A DNA stretch of 64,000 nt from an uncultured Planctomycetales bacterium (GTDB lineage Bacteria > Omnitrophota > Gorgyraeia > Zapsychrales > JANLHA01), in contig CAYVEC010000008.1 in NCBI GenBank assembly GCA_964450385.1, positions 3,835-67,834 on the forward strand, written 5' to 3'. A program made the translations under genes and the position numbers. This document shows, in pieces, positions 15,629-59,848 of this stretch; position 1 is the stretch's first letter; every line of letters starts with the position of its first letter. The notes beneath the pieces are model-generated. The model made no database searches. It saw only the letters and a program-made list of their open reading frames with translations, and was not told where the DNA came from.

Positions 15629-15929
15629 CGTTAACGGAACTCTCGTTTAGATCGAGTTACGGTAGCCTGACGACCATATCCCCACATGGCTAAGGACTTA
15701 GGTTCACGGCTTTGTGCCCTACTCTTTCGAGTAGTTTACCTTTCAAATTGTCACTTAAAGTATAACATCCTGTTTTCGAGCAATGCAAACCAGGTGGGCC
15801 GGGAAATCGAATTTTTATCAGGTGTTAAAAAATCCAATTTTAGTGTAAAGCATTGATGTATATTGTGTTATAGTAATGCGGATTTAAAAGGAGAAAACGC
15901 TTTCTTTTTTTAACAAAAAAAGGTGGTAT

Positions 15930-50514: not shown

Positions 50515-51389
50515 CACAGCGCCGCACGATCCCCGCATCTCAGGTCGTTCTCGTCACCGGCTGCTCAAGCGGGTTCGGACTCCTGACCGCAGCTCGGCTC
50601 GCCAGCCACGGGCATCAGGTCATTGCCACAATGAGGAACCTGAATAAACAAGGGGCGCTCCAGGATGAGCTCAAACGGCGCGGCGCACAGGCCACGATCC
50701 TCCGCCTTGACGTGGAAGACCCGGCATCGATCCGGGCTGTTGTGACCGAGATCGGCGACCGCTACGGATACCTCGACGGCCTGGTGAACAATGCCGGGGT
50801 CGCGACCGGCGGATTCTTCGAGGACCTCTCGGAGGACGAGATCCGCTCGGTGATGAATATTAATTTTTTCGGTGTTCAGCGCGTGACCCGGGCGGCGCTC
50901 CCGCTCATGCGGACCCAGGGATACGGCAAGATCATCAATCTCTCGAGCATCTCCGGCCGATATGGATCACCGGCCTTCGGCGCCTACACCGCGAGCAAAT
51001 GGGCCTTGGAAGGATTCTCAGAAAGCCTCTATTTTGAACTCCGTCCGTTCGGCATTCATGTGGTCCTCATCGAACCCGGGGCCTACCGGACGAAGATCTT
51101 CAGCGAGAATGCCCGTCTGGCCACCGGCTTTGGCGACCCGCAGAGCCCGTATGCCGCGCGGTCGCTTTTTTTAAAGAAAAAGATCGATGATCATATTCAG
51201 GATAATTTTCGCGACCCTGAGGATATCGCCGCGCTCATCGAGCGCGTGCTTCAGAGCCCTGATCCGGGGCTGCGCTATATCCCGGAATGGAGCAGCCGAT
51301 GTCTCACCCTGCTCCGGGGGGTCCTGCCGTTCCGGCTCTATGCCTGGATCTACGAAACCCTGCTCTTCCGCGGACTGAAAGAATCCTAA
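50511..51389 (+). CDS. short-chain dehydrogenase/reductase (SDR)
   Basis: TGCSSGFG cofactor motif, YTASKWAL (YxxxK) active site, ATGA overlap with aroC. Confidence 0.75.
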   Translation: MTQRRTIPASQVVLVTGCSSGFGLLTAARLASHGHQVIATMRNLNKQGALQDELKRRGAQATILRLDVEDPASIRAVVTEIGDRYGYLDGLVNNAGVATGGFFEDLSEDEIRSVMNINFFGVQRVTRAALPLMRTQGYGKIINLSSISGRYGSPAFGAYTASKWALEGFSESLYFELRPFGIHVVLIEPGAYRTKIFSENARLATGFGDPQSPYAARSLFLKKKIDDHIQDNFRDPEDIAALIERVLQSPDPGLRYIPEWSSRCLTLLRGVLPFRLYAWIYETLLFRGLKES

Positions 51390-52024
51390 CAACCCATCCG
51401 GTCCTTTAAAAATTCCTCTTTTGACCGGCAGGTCAGGTAGGGGTTGCGCTGTTTTTGATGCCCGAGGGTGTCTGAAAGGGCGCGGCCGTAGCGGTGACCC
51501 GGATAAATGACGGTGTCATCCGGCAAGGGGAGGAGGACTTCATACAGAGAATAATACATCGCCTCAGGGTCACTCCCGTGGAGGTCGCAGCGGCCGCAGG
51601 CGTTGACAAAAAGGACATCGCCGGTCAAGAGGACCCGGTCGGTCAAAAAGCACATACATCCCGGCGTATGTCCGGGCGTCGCGATCGCCGTGAGCGTCAC
51701 CTGCCCGATCGGAATCGTCTCCTGATCCTTGATCCGAACAAGACGGGGCGTTGAGGGAAGATACCACGTGCCTTCGTCGGCCGAAAGCAGGACCGGAACC
51801 GATAGGCGTTCGGCGATCTCATCCGCCGCATTGATGTGGTCCGGATGCCCGTGGGTCAAGAGGACCATCACGATCGAAACCTCCTCCTCAGCAGCGGTCT
51901 TGAGGAGCAGGTCCGGATCCCAGGCCGGGTCTACGACCGCGACCTCGCGGGCCTGATCACAGCCGATCAGATATTGAAAGTTCTGCATCGGCCCGATCTC
52001 CATTTGTTTTAAAAAAAGCCCCAT
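51386..52024 (-). CDS. MBL-fold metallo-hydrolase (glyoxalase II-like)
   Basis: LLTHGHPDH and ATPGHTPG motifs. The start is chosen at the ATG that has a GAAAGG SD; the ORF track extends it to 52045. Confidence 0.65.
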   Translation of the reverse strand: MGLFLKQMEIGPMQNFQYLIGCDQAREVAVVDPAWDPDLLLKTAAEEEVSIVMVLLTHGHPDHINAADEIAERLSVPVLLSADEGTWYLPSTPRLVRIKDQETIPIGQVTLTAIATPGHTPGCMCFLTDRVLLTGDVLFVNACGRCDLHGSDPEAMYYSLYEVLLPLPDDTVIYPGHRYGRALSDTLGHQKQRNPYLTCRSKEEFLKDRMGC

Positions 52025-52041
52025 GGTCATCCTTTCGTTGA

Positions 52042-53835
<1,794 letters not shown>

Positions 53836-53853
53836 ACTCTTTATACTAATCCT

Positions 53854-55968
53854 ATGTTACAGATCACCGCCTTCTTTAAGCGCTGTGCCCTGATTCAGGA
53901 GATCCCAATCTTCAGCCGGCGGAACTGGCTTGACATCCACCGGATCGCGACCCACGCACACCTGCGCCACTACAAAAAAGGACAGATCGTCTACCGCCAC
54001 GGCGAACAGCCGAGCGATTTTTTTTGTGTGATCTCGGGCCGTATCCAAGGCTACACCCTCGACGATGCGGGAAATAAGATCGATGTGGAATTTTTTCGCC
54101 GCGGGATGTATTTCGGCATCGTCTCGCTTCTCACCGGAAAACCCCATTCGATGACTATGGCCGCGGTCAATGACTCAACGGTCCTGCGCATCGAGAAAGA
54201 CGACTTTCATTCCCTGCTGAAAAGCATCCCCCAGCTCGGCGTAGAATTCAGCCAAAACCTCTCCCAGCGAATCCATCAGCGCATCGCCAAAAAACGCAGT
54301 CTTGACCAGCATGTGATCCTCGCCGTCTACGGCCCGACACGGGGGGCCGGAAGTTCGACCTACGCCTTTCACCTGGCCCTGGCCTTAAAACAACAAACCC
54401 ATCATGAGGTCGTCTTTGTCCGGATCGGCCCGCCGACCCAGGCCGCGTCTGCCTCGCTTGATCCGGAACATATGGCCGGCGCGTCCCCGCAGTGGATCGC
54501 CCCGGGTCTTAATATGGAAACTCTGCTCCGGGGCCCGGACCGCCTTCAGCAGTCGATCATCCGTTCTGACCTTGGTATCAGTCTCCTCAATGTCGAGGTC
54601 ACGGCCGATCATATGAATCTTGTGTCGCATATCAGCGAATTCGTCACGACCCTGATCATGGAGTACACCTTTGTCATCCTCGACCTGCCCACGGAGATCG
54701 ACCGGCTCATCCTTAAGACCCTGACCCAGTCCGACCATATTCACCTGATCGCGCGCGACCGGCCTGACGAACTCCGGGCCATCCAGGAGGTCCTGACCTC
54801 GCTTGAAGAACAGCAGCGTGAAAAGTTCGATCCTGAACGGGTCAAAGTCCTCATCAGCGGACAGCCGACCGCCCCGGACATGAACCGGTCCCAGATCCAT
54901 GAGATCATTGATTATGACATTTATAAACGCCTCTCCCATATTGACCCCCGGGACCTCACCTCGGAACAGGAATGCCACCATGCCCTGCGCGTGGCCATCC
55001 CGCCGGAGACGAGCCGGTTTGCCCATGACGTCCGCCGAATCGCCCGTGAGATCGGCGGCGTCCAAGTCGGCCTTGTGCTCGGCGGAGGGGCGGCGCTCGG
55101 CATCGCCCATATCGGGATCCTCCAGGTCTTTGAGCGTGAACACATCCCGCTCGATATCGTAGCCGGCTCAAGTATGGGGGCCCTCATCGCGAGTCTGTGG
55201 GCAAGCGGATATACCGCGAATGACCTCGCATCGATCGCCGGTCAATTTAGGGACCAGCGGTCGCTCCTCAAACTCTTTGATCCCGTGATCCCGGTATCGG
55301 GCGTCATGGGCGGCCGGTTCATCAAACGATGGCTCGGCCGGTACCTAAGCAACCGCTCGTTTGAAGAGACCTGGCTGCCGCTCAAGATCGTGGCCTATGA
55401 CCTGATGTCGCGTCAGGAACTCGTCTACAATGACGGCGACCTCCTGAGCGCGGTCCGAAAAAGCATCTCCATCCCCGGTATCTTTGAGCCGGTCCTTGAG
55501 GACGACCGGGTCATTATCGATGGAGGGGTCCTCAACCCTGTTCCGGCGAATGTCCTCAGGGCCGAAGGGATCAACCGGATTATCGCGGTCAATGTCCTTC
55601 AATCACCCGCCGAAGTCGTCCGTGGGATCGAGACACGAAAGACCCTTATGGAGTCGCAGCAGCGCGTTCCCTTTCATGAATCCCCAATGGGTTTCCTGAA
55701 GTACCGCCTCGCGCGCGGGATCCAACGTCATTCGAAACCAACGATCTCAAACATCATGGTCCGAACTCTTCTGGCCACGGAATATGAACTCGCCGAACGC
55801 AGCATGCAGCATGTCGACATCGCGATCCACCCGGACCTCACAGGCATCAATTGGTACGAACTCTACCGGGTCGACGACCTTATTGCACGAGGGGTCGAGG
55901 CCGCAGAAAAGGCCCTGCCGGACATCCGCGCCCTTGCCGGCGCGCACGATCCGGCCCCGCACCCATGA
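53854..55968 (+). CDS. three-domain protein: cyclic-nucleotide-binding (CAP-like) domain, degenerate MinD/ParA/CpaE-like domain, patatin-like phospholipase domain
   Basis: cNMP: GQIVYRHGEQPSDFFCVISGRI. ParA-like: VILAVYGPTRGAGSSTYAFHLALAL...FVILDLP. Patatin: GLVLGGGAALGIAHIG, AGSSMGA (GxSxG), IIDGGV (DGG). Confidence 0.7.
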   Translation: MLQITAFFKRCALIQEIPIFSRRNWLDIHRIATHAHLRHYKKGQIVYRHGEQPSDFFCVISGRIQGYTLDDAGNKIDVEFFRRGMYFGIVSLLTGKPHSMTMAAVNDSTVLRIEKDDFHSLLKSIPQLGVEFSQNLSQRIHQRIAKKRSLDQHVILAVYGPTRGAGSSTYAFHLALALKQQTHHEVVFVRIGPPTQAASASLDPEHMAGASPQWIAPGLNMETLLRGPDRLQQSIIRSDLGISLLNVEVTADHMNLVSHISEFVTTLIMEYTFVILDLPTEIDRLILKTLTQSDHIHLIARDRPDELRAIQEVLTSLEEQQREKFDPERVKVLISGQPTAPDMNRSQIHEIIDYDIYKRLSHIDPRDLTSEQECHHALRVAIPPETSRFAHDVRRIAREIGGVQVGLVLGGGAALGIAHIGILQVFEREHIPLDIVAGSSMGALIASLWASGYTANDLASIAGQFRDQRSLLKLFDPVIPVSGVMGGRFIKRWLGRYLSNRSFEETWLPLKIVAYDLMSRQELVYNDGDLLSAVRKSISIPGIFEPVLEDDRVIIDGGVLNPVPANVLRAEGINRIIAVNVLQSPAEVVRGIETRKTLMESQQRVPFHESPMGFLKYRLARGIQRHSKPTISNIMVRTLLATEYELAERSMQHVDIAIHPDLTGINWYELYRVDDLIARGVEAAEKALPDIRALAGAHDPAPHP

Positions 55969-57089
55969 GCACACACCGTTCCCCCACAACCCGTCACCAT
56001 CCGATCACCGATCCGCCACGGATCGTGTCGGGCAAGGGGTCTCGGCTCTCGGACGCCGATGGCCGTGATTATATCGATTTCACCCTGAATCATGGATCGC
56101 TGATCCTCGGACATGCCCACCGGAATGTAATCCTTGCCTTAAAAAAACACCTTGAACGCGGAACCGGCTTCGGGATCAGCAACCCTGCTGAGATCTATCT
56201 CATCCGCCAGATCAGGACTGTATTCCAAGACGCGGAGGACGCCGTCTTTGTCACCGCACCAAGCCAGGCATTAAGCGCATGCCTTCAACGCGCGCGAGAA
56301 CACACCGGCCGCGACATGATCCTCACGAACCGGCCCTATCCAATCAATGGATGTGTGACGACTCAGCCAAATGACCCTGCGGTGTTAACCCGAACGATCC
56401 AGCAAAACAAAAACCGGATCGCAGGGATCCTGCTCGACCCATTAATCACAGACGAGGAGGGACTCACCTCGATCGATGAATCCTTTCTCCGCACGGCCCG
56501 GGACCTTGCGGACGCGCACGGCGCGCTCCTGATCCTGGATGAAAGCCTCCGAGGATTTCGTTCCGGTGCCTGTCACCCGTCTCCCGCTGATGTGTGTGTC
56601 CTTGCCGGCATTATGAGCGCGGGCCTGCCCCTTGCGGGAGTCATCGGGCGCCGCGACCACATCACGGCGATCCGTACGACTCTGCCGAACCGCGAGCGCC
56701 ACATCACCCCGGCGATTCTGCGCGCGAGCCTCATGACGCTCAAACTCCTTGACGAACGGCTTTACCGAGGCCTTGAAGAACGTGCCGACGCGCTTGAGGC
56801 ATCGCTCGCGGCCGCTCTCCGCAACCACGCACCTCACATCGGTCTCGACCGATGGCACGCGATGATGATGTTGACCCCAGCGACAGAGTCTGCAGGCAAA
56901 GGACCCCTCGCTCTGCTACGCCTTTATCCCGAGCTCCGCTCGTTTCTATTGCACGAAGGGATCGTGTTCCCGGAAACGTACCCGAGTGCGTTTTTCCTTT
57001 CGATCATGCACACAAAAAAAGATATCGAAAGATTATCGACAGCAGTTCATCAATTCTTTAAAATGTCAAACGGCAAAACCGGATCATGA
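55965..57089 (+). CDS. class-III aminotransferase-fold protein, HemL (glutamate-1-semialdehyde aminomutase)-like but shortened
   Basis: GSRLSDADGRDYIDFTLNHGSLILGHAH, GALLILDESLRGFR and IGRRD align to HemL. ATGA overlap with the upstream gene. Confidence 0.6.
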   Translation: MSTHRSPTTRHHPITDPPRIVSGKGSRLSDADGRDYIDFTLNHGSLILGHAHRNVILALKKHLERGTGFGISNPAEIYLIRQIRTVFQDAEDAVFVTAPSQALSACLQRAREHTGRDMILTNRPYPINGCVTTQPNDPAVLTRTIQQNKNRIAGILLDPLITDEEGLTSIDESFLRTARDLADAHGALLILDESLRGFRSGACHPSPADVCVLAGIMSAGLPLAGVIGRRDHITAIRTTLPNRERHITPAILRASLMTLKLLDERLYRGLEERADALEASLAAALRNHAPHIGLDRWHAMMMLTPATESAGKGPLALLRLYPELRSFLLHEGIVFPETYPSAFFLSIMHTKKDIERLSTAVHQFFKMSNGKTGS

Positions 57090-57460
57090 GAAGGGACGAC
57101 ATTATGTACGAAAACGACACCTTTGTTGAACGGCCCTGGGGCCGATATTTCAAGCTCTACCAAGAGGCCGGGGTCTGGGTCAAACGCGTTGAGGTTGTAC
57201 CCGGAGGCCGACTGAGCCTTCAGACGCATAACGCCCGATCGGAAAAATGGATCATCGTCCGCGGCACGGGCACGGCCATAGTGAACGGCAAAGATTTTCC
57301 ACTCGGCCCGGGCTCGATCATCGATATCCCGGTCCACAGCGAGCACCGCATCAGCAATACAGGTGAAACGAGCCTGATCTTTATCGAGGTTGCCTGCGGC
57401 GAGTATCTTGGTGAAGATGACATTACCCGGCTTCAGGATGACTACACACGTAACGGATAA
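57086..57460 (+). CDS. cupin-2 domain protein (mannose-6-phosphate isomerase C-terminal-like)
   Basis: LSLQTHNARSEKWIIVRGTG...HRISNTGE. Confidence 0.65.
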   Translation: MRRDDIMYENDTFVERPWGRYFKLYQEAGVWVKRVEVVPGGRLSLQTHNARSEKWIIVRGTGTAIVNGKDFPLGPGSIIDIPVHSEHRISNTGETSLIFIEVACGEYLGEDDITRLQDDYTRNG

Positions 57461-57474
57461 CGACGGGGTGAATC

Positions 57475-57675
57475 ATGGAACGGATATTACGAGGGATCGC
57501 AGGCGCCTGTATTCTACTCAGTCTGCTGCTTGCCTATTATCTTCATCGGAACTGGCTGTGGTTCACGGCCTTCGTGGGGCTCAATCTCTTTCAATCCGCG
57601 TTTACTAATTGGTGCCCGATGATGACGATCCTAAAAAAGTTCGGCATCCGCTCGGGATGTGGTCCCGCCAGATAG
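57475..57675 (+). CDS. DUF2892 (YgaP-like) small two-TM membrane protein
   Basis: RGIAGACILLSLLLAYY...FVGLNLFQSAFTNWCPMMTILKKFG. Confidence 0.6.
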   Translation: MERILRGIAGACILLSLLLAYYLHRNWLWFTAFVGLNLFQSAFTNWCPMMTILKKFGIRSGCGPAR

Positions 57676-57718: not shown

Positions 57719-59137
57719 TCAGACTTTTCTAAGATGACTCGGAAGAATATTGAGCTGCTGACGGTATTTAGAGATCGTGCGCCGGGCCACACTGATCCCG
57801 CGCTGGGCAAGAAGGGTAATGATCTCCTGATCGGACAAGGGATGGCGCCGGTCTTCCTGCGCGACCAATTCCTGGATCTCTTCCTTAATACTGCGGTTAG
57901 AAACCTGCAGGCCCGTGCTGGCCGATGTCTCTCCGATCCCCTGTGAAAAGAAATACTTTAAGGGGAGGATCCCCTGAGGGGTATCCATGTATTTATGTTG
58001 GATCGCACGGCAGATCGTTGACTCGTTCCGCCCTAAGGCGTCAGCTACGTCGCTCAATTTCATCGGCGAGAGGGCCCAATGGCCGTGCGTAAAAAATCCC
58101 TGCTGTTTATCAAGGATAAAATCAGCGATCTGCTTAAGGGTTGTTCCCCGAAGCTCAATGCTCTTAATAAACTGGATCGCCTGGGTAAGGCGTTCACGGA
58201 TGAAAGTCTTTTCCGCAGGGCTTAGGGTATTCTGTTTTAACAAGGCGCGATAAAGGGCGTTCACCCGCAAGCGGGGGATGCCGTGCTGGTTGACCTCAGC
58301 GCGCCAGGCATCGTCACCAGCGTCAGTGTCACGGACAACAGAAATGTCGGGTCTCACATAATGATTGGGGGGAAGCGGCCGGAAATTCCGTGCGGGTTTA
58401 GGTTCAAGCGCCCCTATAAGCTGAGCGCTCTCGCGCACACTATCCACCGAGACCCCGAGCCCGCGGGCAATATCCATGAACCGTTTATGACCAAGGGCAT
58501 CTAAATATCCTTCGATGATCCGGACCGCGAGGGCCGCATGACCGTTAAATTTTACCCGCGCCTGGACAAGGAGACACTCTTTGAGGGAACGGGCCGCGAT
58601 CCCAGGCGGGTCATAGGTCTGGATCTTTTTAAGGACCTCTTCCACGCGTGAGGGGTCGACACCACCCGCGAGAACCGCGATCTCTTCCGCGTCCATCGTT
58701 AAATAGCCATCCTCATTAAGGTCGCCGATGATCAGTTCCCCGATCCTGATGCTCACAGGATCTCTAAAATCTGTGTGGAGTTGGCAGATCAACCGGTCTT
58801 CTAGCGAACTATCACTCTCAAGATAATGTTCCATATGGTCCGTGACCTCATCGGCCGACCCAAAATAGGGGTGTTCCGGACCGTCCATGAGCCGATCAAT
58901 TTCGTGTTGAAGGGTCTCGTCAAAAATCTTGCCGTCTATACTGTCTTCAGGGCCGAGCGCCCGCGCATCTTCATCCTGAGCGGGTTCAGCGACCTCAAGC
59001 AGGGGATTCGTCTCCAATTCTTGGTCGATCGTCTGTTCAAGCTCAAGAAGCGGGAGCATGAGGACTTCCATACTCTGCTGCATAAGGGGGGCTAAGATCT
59101 GTTTCTGAACCTGAACTTGCGTTTGTGCGAGTTTCAT
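57719..59137 (-). CDS. rpoN: RNA polymerase sigma-54 factor
   Basis: C-terminal RpoN box ARRTISKYRQQL. HTH and core-binding regions. Confidence 0.9.
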   Translation of the reverse strand: MKLAQTQVQVQKQILAPLMQQSMEVLMLPLLELEQTIDQELETNPLLEVAEPAQDEDARALGPEDSIDGKIFDETLQHEIDRLMDGPEHPYFGSADEVTDHMEHYLESDSSLEDRLICQLHTDFRDPVSIRIGELIIGDLNEDGYLTMDAEEIAVLAGGVDPSRVEEVLKKIQTYDPPGIAARSLKECLLVQARVKFNGHAALAVRIIEGYLDALGHKRFMDIARGLGVSVDSVRESAQLIGALEPKPARNFRPLPPNHYVRPDISVVRDTDAGDDAWRAEVNQHGIPRLRVNALYRALLKQNTLSPAEKTFIRERLTQAIQFIKSIELRGTTLKQIADFILDKQQGFFTHGHWALSPMKLSDVADALGRNESTICRAIQHKYMDTPQGILPLKYFFSQGIGETSASTGLQVSNRSIKEEIQELVAQEDRRHPLSDQEIITLLAQRGISVARRTISKYRQQLNILPSHLRKV

Positions 59138-59421
59138 AAGCCGATCCGTTAACGGTTCCCTTTAATGGGTTCGGTGACACGCAAAAAGTATACCATATCT
59201 GAAATCTAATTGCCAAGATTAGGCGGGTTGAGAAATATTAAAAAACTCAAAAAAAGAAAATTTTTGCTCTATATTTTTTCGCACTTGTTTTCATAATTTA
59301 ACACTTTTTTTCTGTGATGTTGTGATGTTAAAGGTAGGGATGGATTCATTGAAGAATCCTTGGCGACATTAAAAATTTTTTTAATTTTTTTGTGGGTTTA
59401 CCAGGACAGTATCGGACAGTC

Positions 59422-59441
59422 ATGTTTATTCAAATAAACAT
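59422..59441 (+). promoter_or_regulatory. 20-bp perfect palindrome ATGTTTATTCAAATAAACAT (ATGTTTA-N6-TAAACAT), candidate enhancer
   Basis: Same half-sites and spacing as 9273-9292. About 100 bp upstream of the sigma-54 promoter at 59540. Confidence 0.5.
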
Positions 59442-59539
59442 TCACCACGACATGTACATTCAGTGATTGACAAACCCGGCAAAAAATGACAAAATTTTGA
59501 AAACTGAATCAATTTAACACGTTTAAAAGACACGGTCAT

Positions 59540-59653: not shown

Positions 59654-59848
59654 GTGTTAAACATCAAAGAGCGCATGACGATCACGGAAGTGGCGGATTC
59701 GGTCGGAGTCACCCCGAAGACCCTCACCCGGTGGGAAAAGAACGGGAAGATCCGTAAACCAAAAAGAGATTGGCGTGGCTGGCGGGTGTACAGTACTGAT
59801 GACCTGAGCGAGATCAAAGAATTCCACGACACCCTGCAGGAAATTTGA
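59654..59848 (+). CDS. small excisionase/MerR-superfamily HTH DNA-binding protein (64 aa)
   Basis: SD AAGGAGG, GTG start. MTITEVADSVGVTPKTLTRWEKNGKIRKPKRDWRGWRVY matches the excisionase-family HTH pattern. Confidence 0.5.
   Translation: MLNIKERMTITEVADSVGVTPKTLTRWEKNGKIRKPKRDWRGWRVYSTDDLSEIKEFHDTLQEI

Follow-up and report, generated by a model that had tools for sequence, protein, structure and literature searches.

Patatin-type Ser-Asp esterases with one or more cyclic-nucleotide-binding (CNB) type domains N-terminal to the catalytic part are a known architecture, that of the NTE family (NTE/PNPLA6, PNPLA7, Nte1 and the bacterial "NTE family"). To our knowledge, the way in which the CNB domains control such esterases has yet to be clarified, human PNPLA6 and PNPLA7 included. 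We have analysed a 64,000-nucleotide (nt) stretch of DNA (the window, to whose coordinates all positions refer) from contig CAYVEC010000008.1, in which the gene of a 704-amino-acid (aa) relative of these enzymes lies after thiC and is followed by genes for a lysine-less HemL-like protein, a cupin and a DUF2892 protein. The preliminary description of this region saw in it a dedicated four-gene system, in which the partner genes supply or modify the ligand of a cyclic-nucleotide-gated lipase. Our results make it probable (about 0.62) that the block is a lineage-specific compaction of an Omnitrophota-wide gene order, containing an uncharacterised lipase and a HemL retained as a pseudoenzyme, and not a dedicated four-gene system.

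The 704-aa family is already generically annotated. It differs from the NTE family in having one CNB domain with a His/Ile cassette, and from NTE, RssA (YchK) and PlpD in the insertion of a 250-aa lysine-less ParA/MinD-fold domain between sensor and esterase, in the Leu that replaces the Arg of GGGxRG, and in the lack of an evident N-terminal membrane anchor. Like the CapV and CapE proteins of the CBASS defence systems, which match it in fold, the 704-aa protein is a patatin hydrolase, presumably switched on by a small ligand, and its CNB domain resembles that of Pycsar effectors at the domain level. However, CapV and CapE, which lack a CNB domain, bind their nucleotide within the patatin protein, the partner domains of Pycsar effectors are TIR or transmembrane domains and not patatin, and the 704-aa gene has no cyclase partner and lies in a conserved housekeeping context. 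The TadZ/CpaE/Ssd proteins (3ea0; Eubacterium rectale TadZ) share the ParA/MinD fold, a Walker-B Asp followed by Pro (D277-L-P in the 704-aa protein) and, in 3ea0, a GxGxS-type loop without the P-loop Lys. In contrast to TadZ, the ParA-like domain is here embedded between two other domains instead of following a receiver-like one, no Tad pilus genes surround the gene, the motifs typical of the family, YSPxxGxGSSTYA and TLTQSD, differ from those of TadZ, and a short form of the family in Leptospiraceae has no P-loop whatsoever. As far as our literature searches show, no characterised protein joins a His-type cassette, a lysine-less ParA-like domain embedded between other domains and a Leu-type oxyanion loop.

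Gene order of the locus in Omnitrophota

The genes of the block and its two flanking genes, with ORFs (open reading frames) taken from the ORF list and junctions read from the sequence letters, are as follows.

52153-53835, + strand: thiC (ORF list; ThiC_Rad_SAM, E 5e-181)
53854-55968, + strand: 704-aa three-domain protein with a CNB-like sensor, a lysine-less ParA/MinD-like domain and a patatin hydrolase (ORF, Pfam and NCBIfam)
55965-57089, + strand: degenerate homologue of HemL (glutamate-1-semialdehyde aminomutase), 374 aa, probably a pseudoenzyme; its start is the ATG inside the ATGA overlap (Aminotran_3, E 6e-24)
57086-57460, + strand: single-domain cupin, 124 aa, type II phosphomannose-isomerase-like (PF01050, E 5.7e-28; Cupin_2)
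57475-57675, + strand: DUF2892/YgaP-like membrane protein, 66 aa (PF11127, YgaP-like_TM, E 2.2e-14)
57719-59137, - strand: rpoN (sigma-54 domains, Pfam)

The tight packing first reported for this block is real: 18 nt separate the TGA of thiC from the ATG of the 704-aa ORF, ATGA overlaps join the latter to the HemL-like gene (55965-55968) and the HemL-like gene to the cupin gene (57086-57089), 14 nt lie between the cupin and DUF2892 genes, and the convergent stops of DUF2892 and rpoN are 43 nt apart. The view that such spacing is a sign of common function did not hold. The median gap between the lipase gene and its upstream neighbour is equally small for unrelated genes, namely 2.5 nt for acyl-CoA dehydrogenase (ACAD), 2 nt for methyltransferase and -8 nt for short-chain dehydrogenase/reductase (SDR) genes. 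Since the gaps are tiny with every type of upstream neighbour, the overlaps are a habit of these genomes and cannot be counted as a sign of a functional unit.

More than 120 full-length homologues of the 704-aa protein were found (41-59% identity), and the named ones come almost exclusively from Candidatus Omnitrophota. A scan at one genome per species gave 79 related loci, nearly all in Omnitrophota metagenome-assembled genomes (MAGs); the family is single-copy and present in at least 75 species-level Omnitrophota genomes. The ORFs of the 79 loci and of the window were clustered and cluster representatives were annotated with Pfam, which identified the recurrent neighbours as ACAD, HemC+TP_methylase+HemD (hemCD below), ALAD (hemB), thiolase, AMP-binding, PsbP, U5-methyltransferase, DUF3568 and SDR. 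Many of the records are titled "uncultured Planctomycetales" (L003, L005, L007 and others) and share their gene order and a 40-47% identical lipase with Omnitrophota-labelled MAGs; the taxonomy given for these ENA MAGs seems unreliable. At two loci the lipase gene is split into two ORFs (L060, 3582-5509; L076, 10001-12051), which might reflect a frameshift, an assembly error or pseudogenisation.

Three gene orders recur. The most extended one runs from AMP-ligase, two thiolase, PsbP-like, U5-methyltransferase, ferredoxin-like and ACAD genes to the lipase gene, and from there through hemC/cobA/hemD, hemB, hemL, DUF3568 and cupin genes to a convergent rpoN. Another leads to the lipase gene from leuC, leuD, (ilvD), aroC and SDR. 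The third consists of transketolase, PsbP-like, methyltransferase, lipase, HemL-like, DUF3568 and cupin genes and the convergent rpoN. The gene directly upstream of the lipase gene encodes ACAD in 36 of 68 loci, methyltransferase in 11 and SDR in 10; the gene directly downstream is hemCD in 21 of 71 loci, HemL-like in nine and cupin in five. Up to 8 kb downstream (n=43), hemL was present in 25 loci, cupin and hemCD in 21 each, hemB in 17 and rpoN in seven.

Neither edge of the window block belongs to this order. None of the 79 related loci contains thiC, and in none does DUF2892 lie downstream of the lipase gene, its only homologues (L009 and L051) being located about 6 kb upstream of it. Thus, thiC and DUF2892 are lineage-specific neighbours, outside the conserved block. 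In the window, a metallo-beta-lactamase (MBL) fold gene (51386-52045, - strand) and thiC separate the lipase gene from an SDR gene, while in 10-11 other genomes the SDR and lipase genes are directly adjacent. The closest relative, L080 (59% identity), has neither thiC nor DUF2892 nor tight packing; its order is transketolase, PsbP-like, methyltransferase, lipase, trypsin/TPR, HemL-like, an unassigned gene (x), cupin, SPASM, transposase, rpoN, MerR and Poly_export, the downstream end being common to both. The four genes are therefore largely not co-conserved across genomes, and in L080 other genes even stand between the lipase gene and its neighbours.

Copies of the cupin with 55-75% identity occur in 29 loci, usually beside rpoN, and rpoN is convergent after the cupin gene in L001, L008, L010, L012, L026, L027, L064, L066, L075 and L080. 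The PF01050 (MannoseP_isomer) score of the cupin is 97.9 bits (gathering 23.6), and the whole protein aligns to the C-terminus of the bifunctional GMP/PMI (phosphomannose isomerase) enzymes. It differs from type II PMI in standing alone, with 124 aa and no nucleotidyltransferase domain, and its nearest solved structures are generic small cupins. The segments LSLQTHNARSEKW and HSEHRISN contain, as judged by eye, Gln, His, Glu and His as candidate metal ligands. DUF2892 scores 53.8 bits with PF11127 (gathering 25.3).

The upstream ACAD and thiolase genes and the downstream hemCD and hemB genes are lost together, and this loss coincides with the degenerate HemL-like form (loci L001-L079, compared on a star-like neighbour-joining tree), which suggests that beta-oxidation and tetrapyrrole synthesis were reduced together in some lineages of Omnitrophota. 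The lipase gene directly follows a VLCAD-like acyl-CoA dehydrogenase gene in about half of the genomes, with thiolases and an acyl-CoA-ligase-type gene nearby, and this neighbourhood gives a weak hint of lipid catabolism. A role in beta-oxidation was considered and not adopted: wherever those genes are missing, the window included, the lipase is still present, so the link is not obligatory.

Several other features of the window were recorded. A sigma-70-like sequence, TTGCAA-17-TATACT, recognised by its consensus only, lies at 53819-53847 (+ strand), with 7 nt between the end of its -10 box and the start codon of the 704-aa gene. No Shine-Dalgarno sequence was seen in the 18-nt gap before this gene, and the gene may, as these letters suggest, have its own promoter and a near-leaderless mRNA. 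Thiamine control of the block was sought in the form of a thiamine pyrophosphate (TPP) riboswitch, and none was detected upstream of thiC, either at the gathering threshold or at E<=1. A c-di-GMP-I riboswitch (RF01051) is present at 15658-15750 (- strand; full-length match, 72.8 bits, gathering score 35), and it shows that c-di-GMP signalling exists in the genome. GC content falls to 0.378 at 59000-59499 (about 0.57 around it), in the spacer where rpoN and a small MerR-type helix-turn-helix gene (59654-59848) diverge; the latter is followed by a Poly_export-like gene, and the order rpoN, MerR, Poly_export also occurs in L080.

The HemL-like protein

The second gene of the block encodes what had been called a lysine-less HemL-like protein, and this designation is correct.

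56607-56609, + strand: codon of Gly215, at the position of the catalytic (Schiff-base) Lys that binds pyridoxal phosphate (PLP) (LGK(I/L)(I/L)GGG aligned to LAGIMSAG)

The segment LGKILGGG of Thermus thermophilus HemL corresponds to LAGIMSAG in the window protein. HemL (TIGR00713) is still the best family match, at 152.3 bits, well below the cut-off of 527.3. The gene occupies the orthologous position in the conserved order, where hemL follows hemB. It differs from HemL in the Gly for Lys, in the change of the phosphate-binding motif SGTEA to APSQA and in the absence of about 45 residues, including the CYHG region, and no hemB, hemCD or second hemL was found within the 64-kb window.

This state is not confined to the window. 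The HemL copies located after hemB retain LGKIIGGG. At the loci without hemCD/hemB (n=11), nine copies (the window, L001, L009, L010, L021, L045, L049, L055 and L067) carry G, N, S, R or H in place of the Lys, and the remaining two (L005 and L075) keep Lys and have lost the SGTEA and CYHG motifs. Gly is found at the Lys position in the nearest relatives too (L080 and L082), so this is an old loss.

The degenerate copies have a median pairwise identity of 33%, as against 62% for the catalytic ones; in the same sets of genomes (degenerate versus catalytic hemL) the values are 47% versus 52% for the lipase and 63% versus 67% for the cupin. The evolutionary rate of degenerate HemL is about double that of the catalytic form. 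Even the closest degenerate pair is only 55% identical, with synonymous sites saturated. The gene nevertheless remains an intact full-length ORF of 350-415 codons in at least 13 lineages (degenerate copies: the window, L001, L005, L009, L010, L021, L045, L049, L055, L067, L075, L080, L082, L083 and L084) and in 63 database clusters, and an Asp-Glu pair after strand 7 and an N-terminal GHAHRNV motif are conserved. An ORF that is intact at such divergence is not a neutral pseudogene, and the HemL-like protein is best read as a retained pseudoenzyme that has lost its active site.

A scan of a library of 1.84 billion representatives, clustered at 50% identity, indicated that such proteins are widespread. 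Among the best 150 clusters scored, 63 lack the Lys (G in 26, P in 14, S in 8, R in 5, and others); these have a median length of 406 aa, compared with 430 aa, and the GTE motif is found in 4/63 of them versus 63/87 of the Lys-bearing clusters. Some of the Lys-less proteins are annotated as glutamate-1-semialdehyde aminomutase. One form with Pro for Lys, in a Phycisphaerae genome, follows the gene of a 493-aa protein without a Pfam match, with no patatin gene nearby; a further Omnitrophota contig has the order lipase, Lys-less HemL-like, DUF3568.

Domains of the 704-aa lipase

The three-domain architecture proposed for the 704-aa protein is borne out by Pfam, NCBIfam and Foldseek. An AlphaFold2 model built on 49 family members (pLDDT 82.4, pTM 0.73) was compared with the PDB: its N-terminus matched the CNB domains of MlotiK1, PKA-R and DNR, its centre the ParA-family protein 3ea0 (E 5e-10, TMt 0.66), and its C-terminus PlpD (E 1.6e-19), CapE, CapV and patatin. 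Residues were counted in 119 full-length members and 67 short-form relatives.

53854-54291, + strand: CNB-fold (CAP/PKA-R type) domain, aa 1-146 (PF00027; Foldseek to MlotiK1 CNB domain, PKA-R and DNR)
54112-54153, + strand: non-canonical phosphate-binding cassette FGIVSLLTGKPHSM, aa 87-100, with Ile89 equivalent to Glu and His98 equivalent to Arg (alignment to PKG/PKA-R)
54301-55053, + strand: ParA/MinD-fold domain, aa 150-400, closest to the lysine-less CpaE/TadZ-type 3ea0 (Foldseek, profile search)
54328-54366, + strand: Walker-A-like loop YGPTRGAGSSTYA, aa 159-171, without the signature Lys and without the P-loop Lys (alignment to ParA 8ray and 3ea0)
55060-55935, + strand: patatin (RssA/PlpD-type) hydrolase domain, aa 403-694 (PF01734, NF007623 and PlpD matches)
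55081-55101, + strand: glycine-rich oxyanion/anion loop GGGAALG, aa 410-416, with Leu415 at the Arg/Lys position (alignment)
55165-55179, + strand: nucleophile elbow GSSMG with Ser440, aa 438-442 (Ser in 119/119)
55519-55527, + strand: DGG with the catalytic Asp556, aa 556-558 (Asp in 119/119)

The sensor has a CNB fold (cNMP_binding PF00027 at aa 38-123, E 3e-20, 72.4 bits against a gathering score of 27.5; MlotiK1 CNB domain, TMt 0.85-0.86), though without the canonical Glu and Arg of the cassette. In that cassette the Glu contacts the ribose 2'-OH and the Arg the cyclic phosphate. The FGE...R[ST]A of PKG, PKA-R and related domains reads FGI...HSM in the window protein (HS[LM] across the family). 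The Glu position is Ile in 101/119 members and I, V, L or M in all 119; the Arg position is His in 116/119 and Gln in 3/119, and the His recurs in 65/67 short forms. With both contact residues replaced throughout the family, the gating by cyclic nucleotides that had been proposed is unsupported. The domain probably binds neither cAMP nor cGMP, and the conserved loss of both residues points to a different ligand or an unusual binding mode. A long C-helix (aa 126-146) follows in the model.

The central module had been described as CpaE/MinD-like with a degenerate P-loop, and no unrelated fold emerged. A profile built from 20 central domains and run against PDB sequences retrieved 3ea0 (E 1.9e-8), followed by PF-32, ParA, VpsO, Soj, MinD and BY-kinase proteins. 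Weaker matches were obtained with TIGR03815 (CpaE_hom/Ssd, E 8e-5) and with AAA_31 (aa 157-319, E 1e-3, 19.5 bits, below the Pfam cut-off of 27); a word-indexed homology search with the central domain alone gave no matches. The fold is that of ParA/MinD, and the deviant Walker A pattern K-G-G-x-G-K-[ST] is absent: the loop TRGAGSST (family consensus VKGTGSST) aligns to KGGVGKTT, the corresponding residues being GGVGKTT in ParA 8ray and GDGGS in 3ea0. The P-loop Lys position is Ser in 99/119 members, Lys not being among its commonest residues, while G166 and S168 are each found in 118/119. According to PMC10482377, which cites Xu et al. 2012, E. rectale TadZ retains ATPase activity although it has neither lysine. 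Given that report, a degenerate loop is no proof that the central domain is free of nucleotide.

The patatin domain is well supported (PF01734 at aa 407-568, E 1.6e-27, 97.4 bits against a gathering score of 27.7). It aligns end to end with RssA (NF007623, E 5e-35 over aa 403-694, model positions 4-296 of 301), but at 121.1 bits does not reach the cut-off of 272. The structure of PlpD (5fya) also matches it (Foldseek TMt 0.84; phmmer E 1.3e-31; 27% identity). The reported motif states are likewise correct: the Ser of GxSxG and the Asp of DGG are invariant, and where G-G-G-x-[K/R]-G has its basic residue, 115/119 members have Leu and 4/119 have Phe (L, F, I or M in 67/67 short forms). The same loop is GGAARG in PlpD and GGGAKG in ExoU and VipD, and PMC9095652 describes the motif G-G-G-x-[K/R]-G as one that binds phosphate or another anion. 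Since Leu replaces the anion-binding Arg, the substrate would present no phosphate at this point, and we infer that it may be a neutral lipid, a lysolipid or another acyl ester. The motif GCGFLG of ATGL/PNPLA2, searched for as text, led to no paper. The neutral-lipid lipases PNPLA2 and PNPLA3 have Leu at the same loop position, a likeness that we do not use as evidence.

The protein has no evident signal peptide or transmembrane segment in its sequence, so that it is probably cytoplasmic. An exact look-up of the window protein in the contig index returned no entry. The short form of the family, 550-600 aa long, occurs in cultured and uncultured Leptospiraceae and some Omnitrophota (for example L079, 9983-11707, from Leptospira sp. 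'Mane'; others are P0121-P0200). In Leptospiraceae it keeps the His-type cassette and a GGGAA[LFIM]G loop, and its central domain is about 90 aa shorter and lacks the GxGSST loop. The neighbours of the Leptospira locus (recN, exbBD, lipoproteins, leuCD) are uninformative.

Alternative explanations and implications

The explanation originally put forward, a cyclic-nucleotide-gated lipid effector or signalling lipase whose ligand is made or modified by the HemL-like, cupin and DUF2892 proteins, had in its favour the CNB fold with its high Pfam score, the ATGA overlaps and the co-stranded lipase, HemL-like and cupin genes of many genomes. We now consider it very improbable, because neither cassette residue survives in any of the 119 members, thiC and DUF2892 are foreign to the block elsewhere, a HemL-like protein without PLP-binding residues is unlikely to make anything, and many genomes have the lipase with no HemL-like or cupin gene nearby. 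Moreover, no nucleotide cyclase was seen at any clustered locus, in a search for cyclases that was not exhaustive. More improbable still is an anti-phage or abortive-infection effector akin to the CapV/CapE patatins of CBASS or the CNB effectors of Pycsar. The Foldseek matches to CapE and CapV, and domain-level matches to PADLOC models (PycTIR CNB, E 2.8e-8; CBASS phospholipase, E 1e-3) and to the NCBIfam anti-phage phospholipase DS2_1 (E 0.004), are compatible with it, but the matches are weak, confined to single domains and far under the model cut-offs. Defence genes are patchy and lie in variable islands; the lipase gene, in contrast, is single-copy and keeps one housekeeping context (leu, aro, hem, transketolase, rpoN) in at least 75 species-level genomes; it has neither a cyclase nor any other defence partner next to it, and GC content in the window is unremarkable. 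Membership of a defence system was rejected on the PADLOC results and this context.

The remaining alternatives concern the dead HemL. It (and perhaps the cupin) might serve the lipase as a recruited, non-catalytic partner or regulator, only in the heme-less Omnitrophota clade; the maintenance of the degenerate ORF over deep divergence, its conserved Asp-Glu and GHAHRNV motifs and its start, usually -4 to +22 nt from the lipase stop (the window, L001, L021, L045, L049, L055, L067, L082 and L083), would agree with this. Yet adjacency follows automatically once hemCD-hemB is deleted from the ancestral order, other genes stand between the two in L080, L010 and L075, the lipase occurs without a HemL-like gene in many lineages, and the Phycisphaerae genome has a Lys-less HemL-like gene with no patatin gene beside it; we regard recruitment as unlikely. 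The wider claim of a new class of ligand-gated lipid hydrolases, with a non-cyclic-nucleotide metabolite as ligand, a ParA-like dimerisation switch and a dead HemL as regulatory subunit in heme-less Omnitrophota, is decidedly doubtful. It is also quite improbable that the HemL-like gene is a slowly decaying pseudogene and the lipase a constitutive housekeeping esterase with two purely structural N-terminal domains. The doubled rate and the deletions of the HemL-like protein, and the complete loss of the P-loop in the Leptospiraceae short form, would fit such a view, but the ORF of 350-415 codons has stayed intact between lineages that share only about 47% identity in their conserved proteins, and the cassette His and the GxGSST loop are almost invariant, a sign that these sites are under selection.

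Certain observations weigh against the compaction reading that we favour. The HemL-like start lies -4 to +17 nt from the lipase stop in seven of the nine lineages where the two are adjacent, and the linkage of lipase and cupin persists in five loci after complete loss of the heme genes; this spacing and linkage leave room for some functional coupling of the lipase with the HemL-like protein or the cupin. A conserved order within one phylum is no independent evidence for or against function, the absence of heme genes is a statement about loci (64 kb of the window genome, about 20 kb per related locus), and no paper specific to this lipase family was found. As regards the ligand, the CNB domain has conserved basic residues (K42, R63, K75 and R83) besides His98, which together could bind a phosphate-bearing compound, including an unusual cyclic nucleotide, and the PycTIR match noted above is a weak resemblance to cCMP/cUMP-sensing domains.

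According to the compaction reading, the starting point would have been the recurrent order in which leuCD-aroC-SDR, or beta-oxidation-type genes ending in ACAD, lead to lipase, hemC/cobA/hemD, hemB, hemL, (DUF3568), cupin and rpoN. In the window lineage hemCD and hemB would have been removed from the locus, and it is because of this deletion that the HemL-like gene would now lie beside the lipase gene. The hemL orthologue would then have lost its PLP-binding Lys, its phosphate-binding motif and about 45 residues, and persisted as a fast-evolving, intact gene, while thiC (with the MBL-fold gene) and DUF2892 would have been inserted at the two edges of the block. The 704-aa protein itself most likely acts as a ligand-regulated lipid or acyl-ester hydrolase. 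Its CNB sensor, with a pocket remodelled by Ile and His in place of Glu and Arg, would bind a ligand other than cAMP or cGMP, the C-helix would pass the signal to the lysine-less ParA/MinD (TadZ/CpaE-like) domain, and the latter, as a dimerisation or localisation scaffold that is possibly nucleotide-dependent, would control the Ser440-Asp556 dyad. The Foldseek matches include entries for a CapE filament and a CapV tetramer, which provide a precedent for patatins activated by oligomerisation. We give this chain of control, taken as a whole, about an even chance.

The results have several consequences. In compact genomes of this kind, ATGA overlaps are no evidence of a functional module. The Lys-less HemL-like proteins clearly illustrate how a biosynthetic enzyme can be retained as a pseudoenzyme once its pathway has gone from the locus, and their annotation as glutamate-1-semialdehyde aminomutase would wrongly credit genomes with a step of heme synthesis; if HemL had indeed been recruited, it would be a case of a PLP-fold pseudoenzyme controlling a lipase. 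The 704-aa family is a compact bacterial relative of NTE, with a remodelled ligand pocket and an extra ParA-like switch domain, and its orthologues in cultivable saprophytic Leptospira make it a tractable model for CNB-regulated patatins. Omnitrophota are ultra-small, possibly host-dependent bacteria, and the near-universal presence of this single-copy lipase among them suggests a basic role in lipid turnover.

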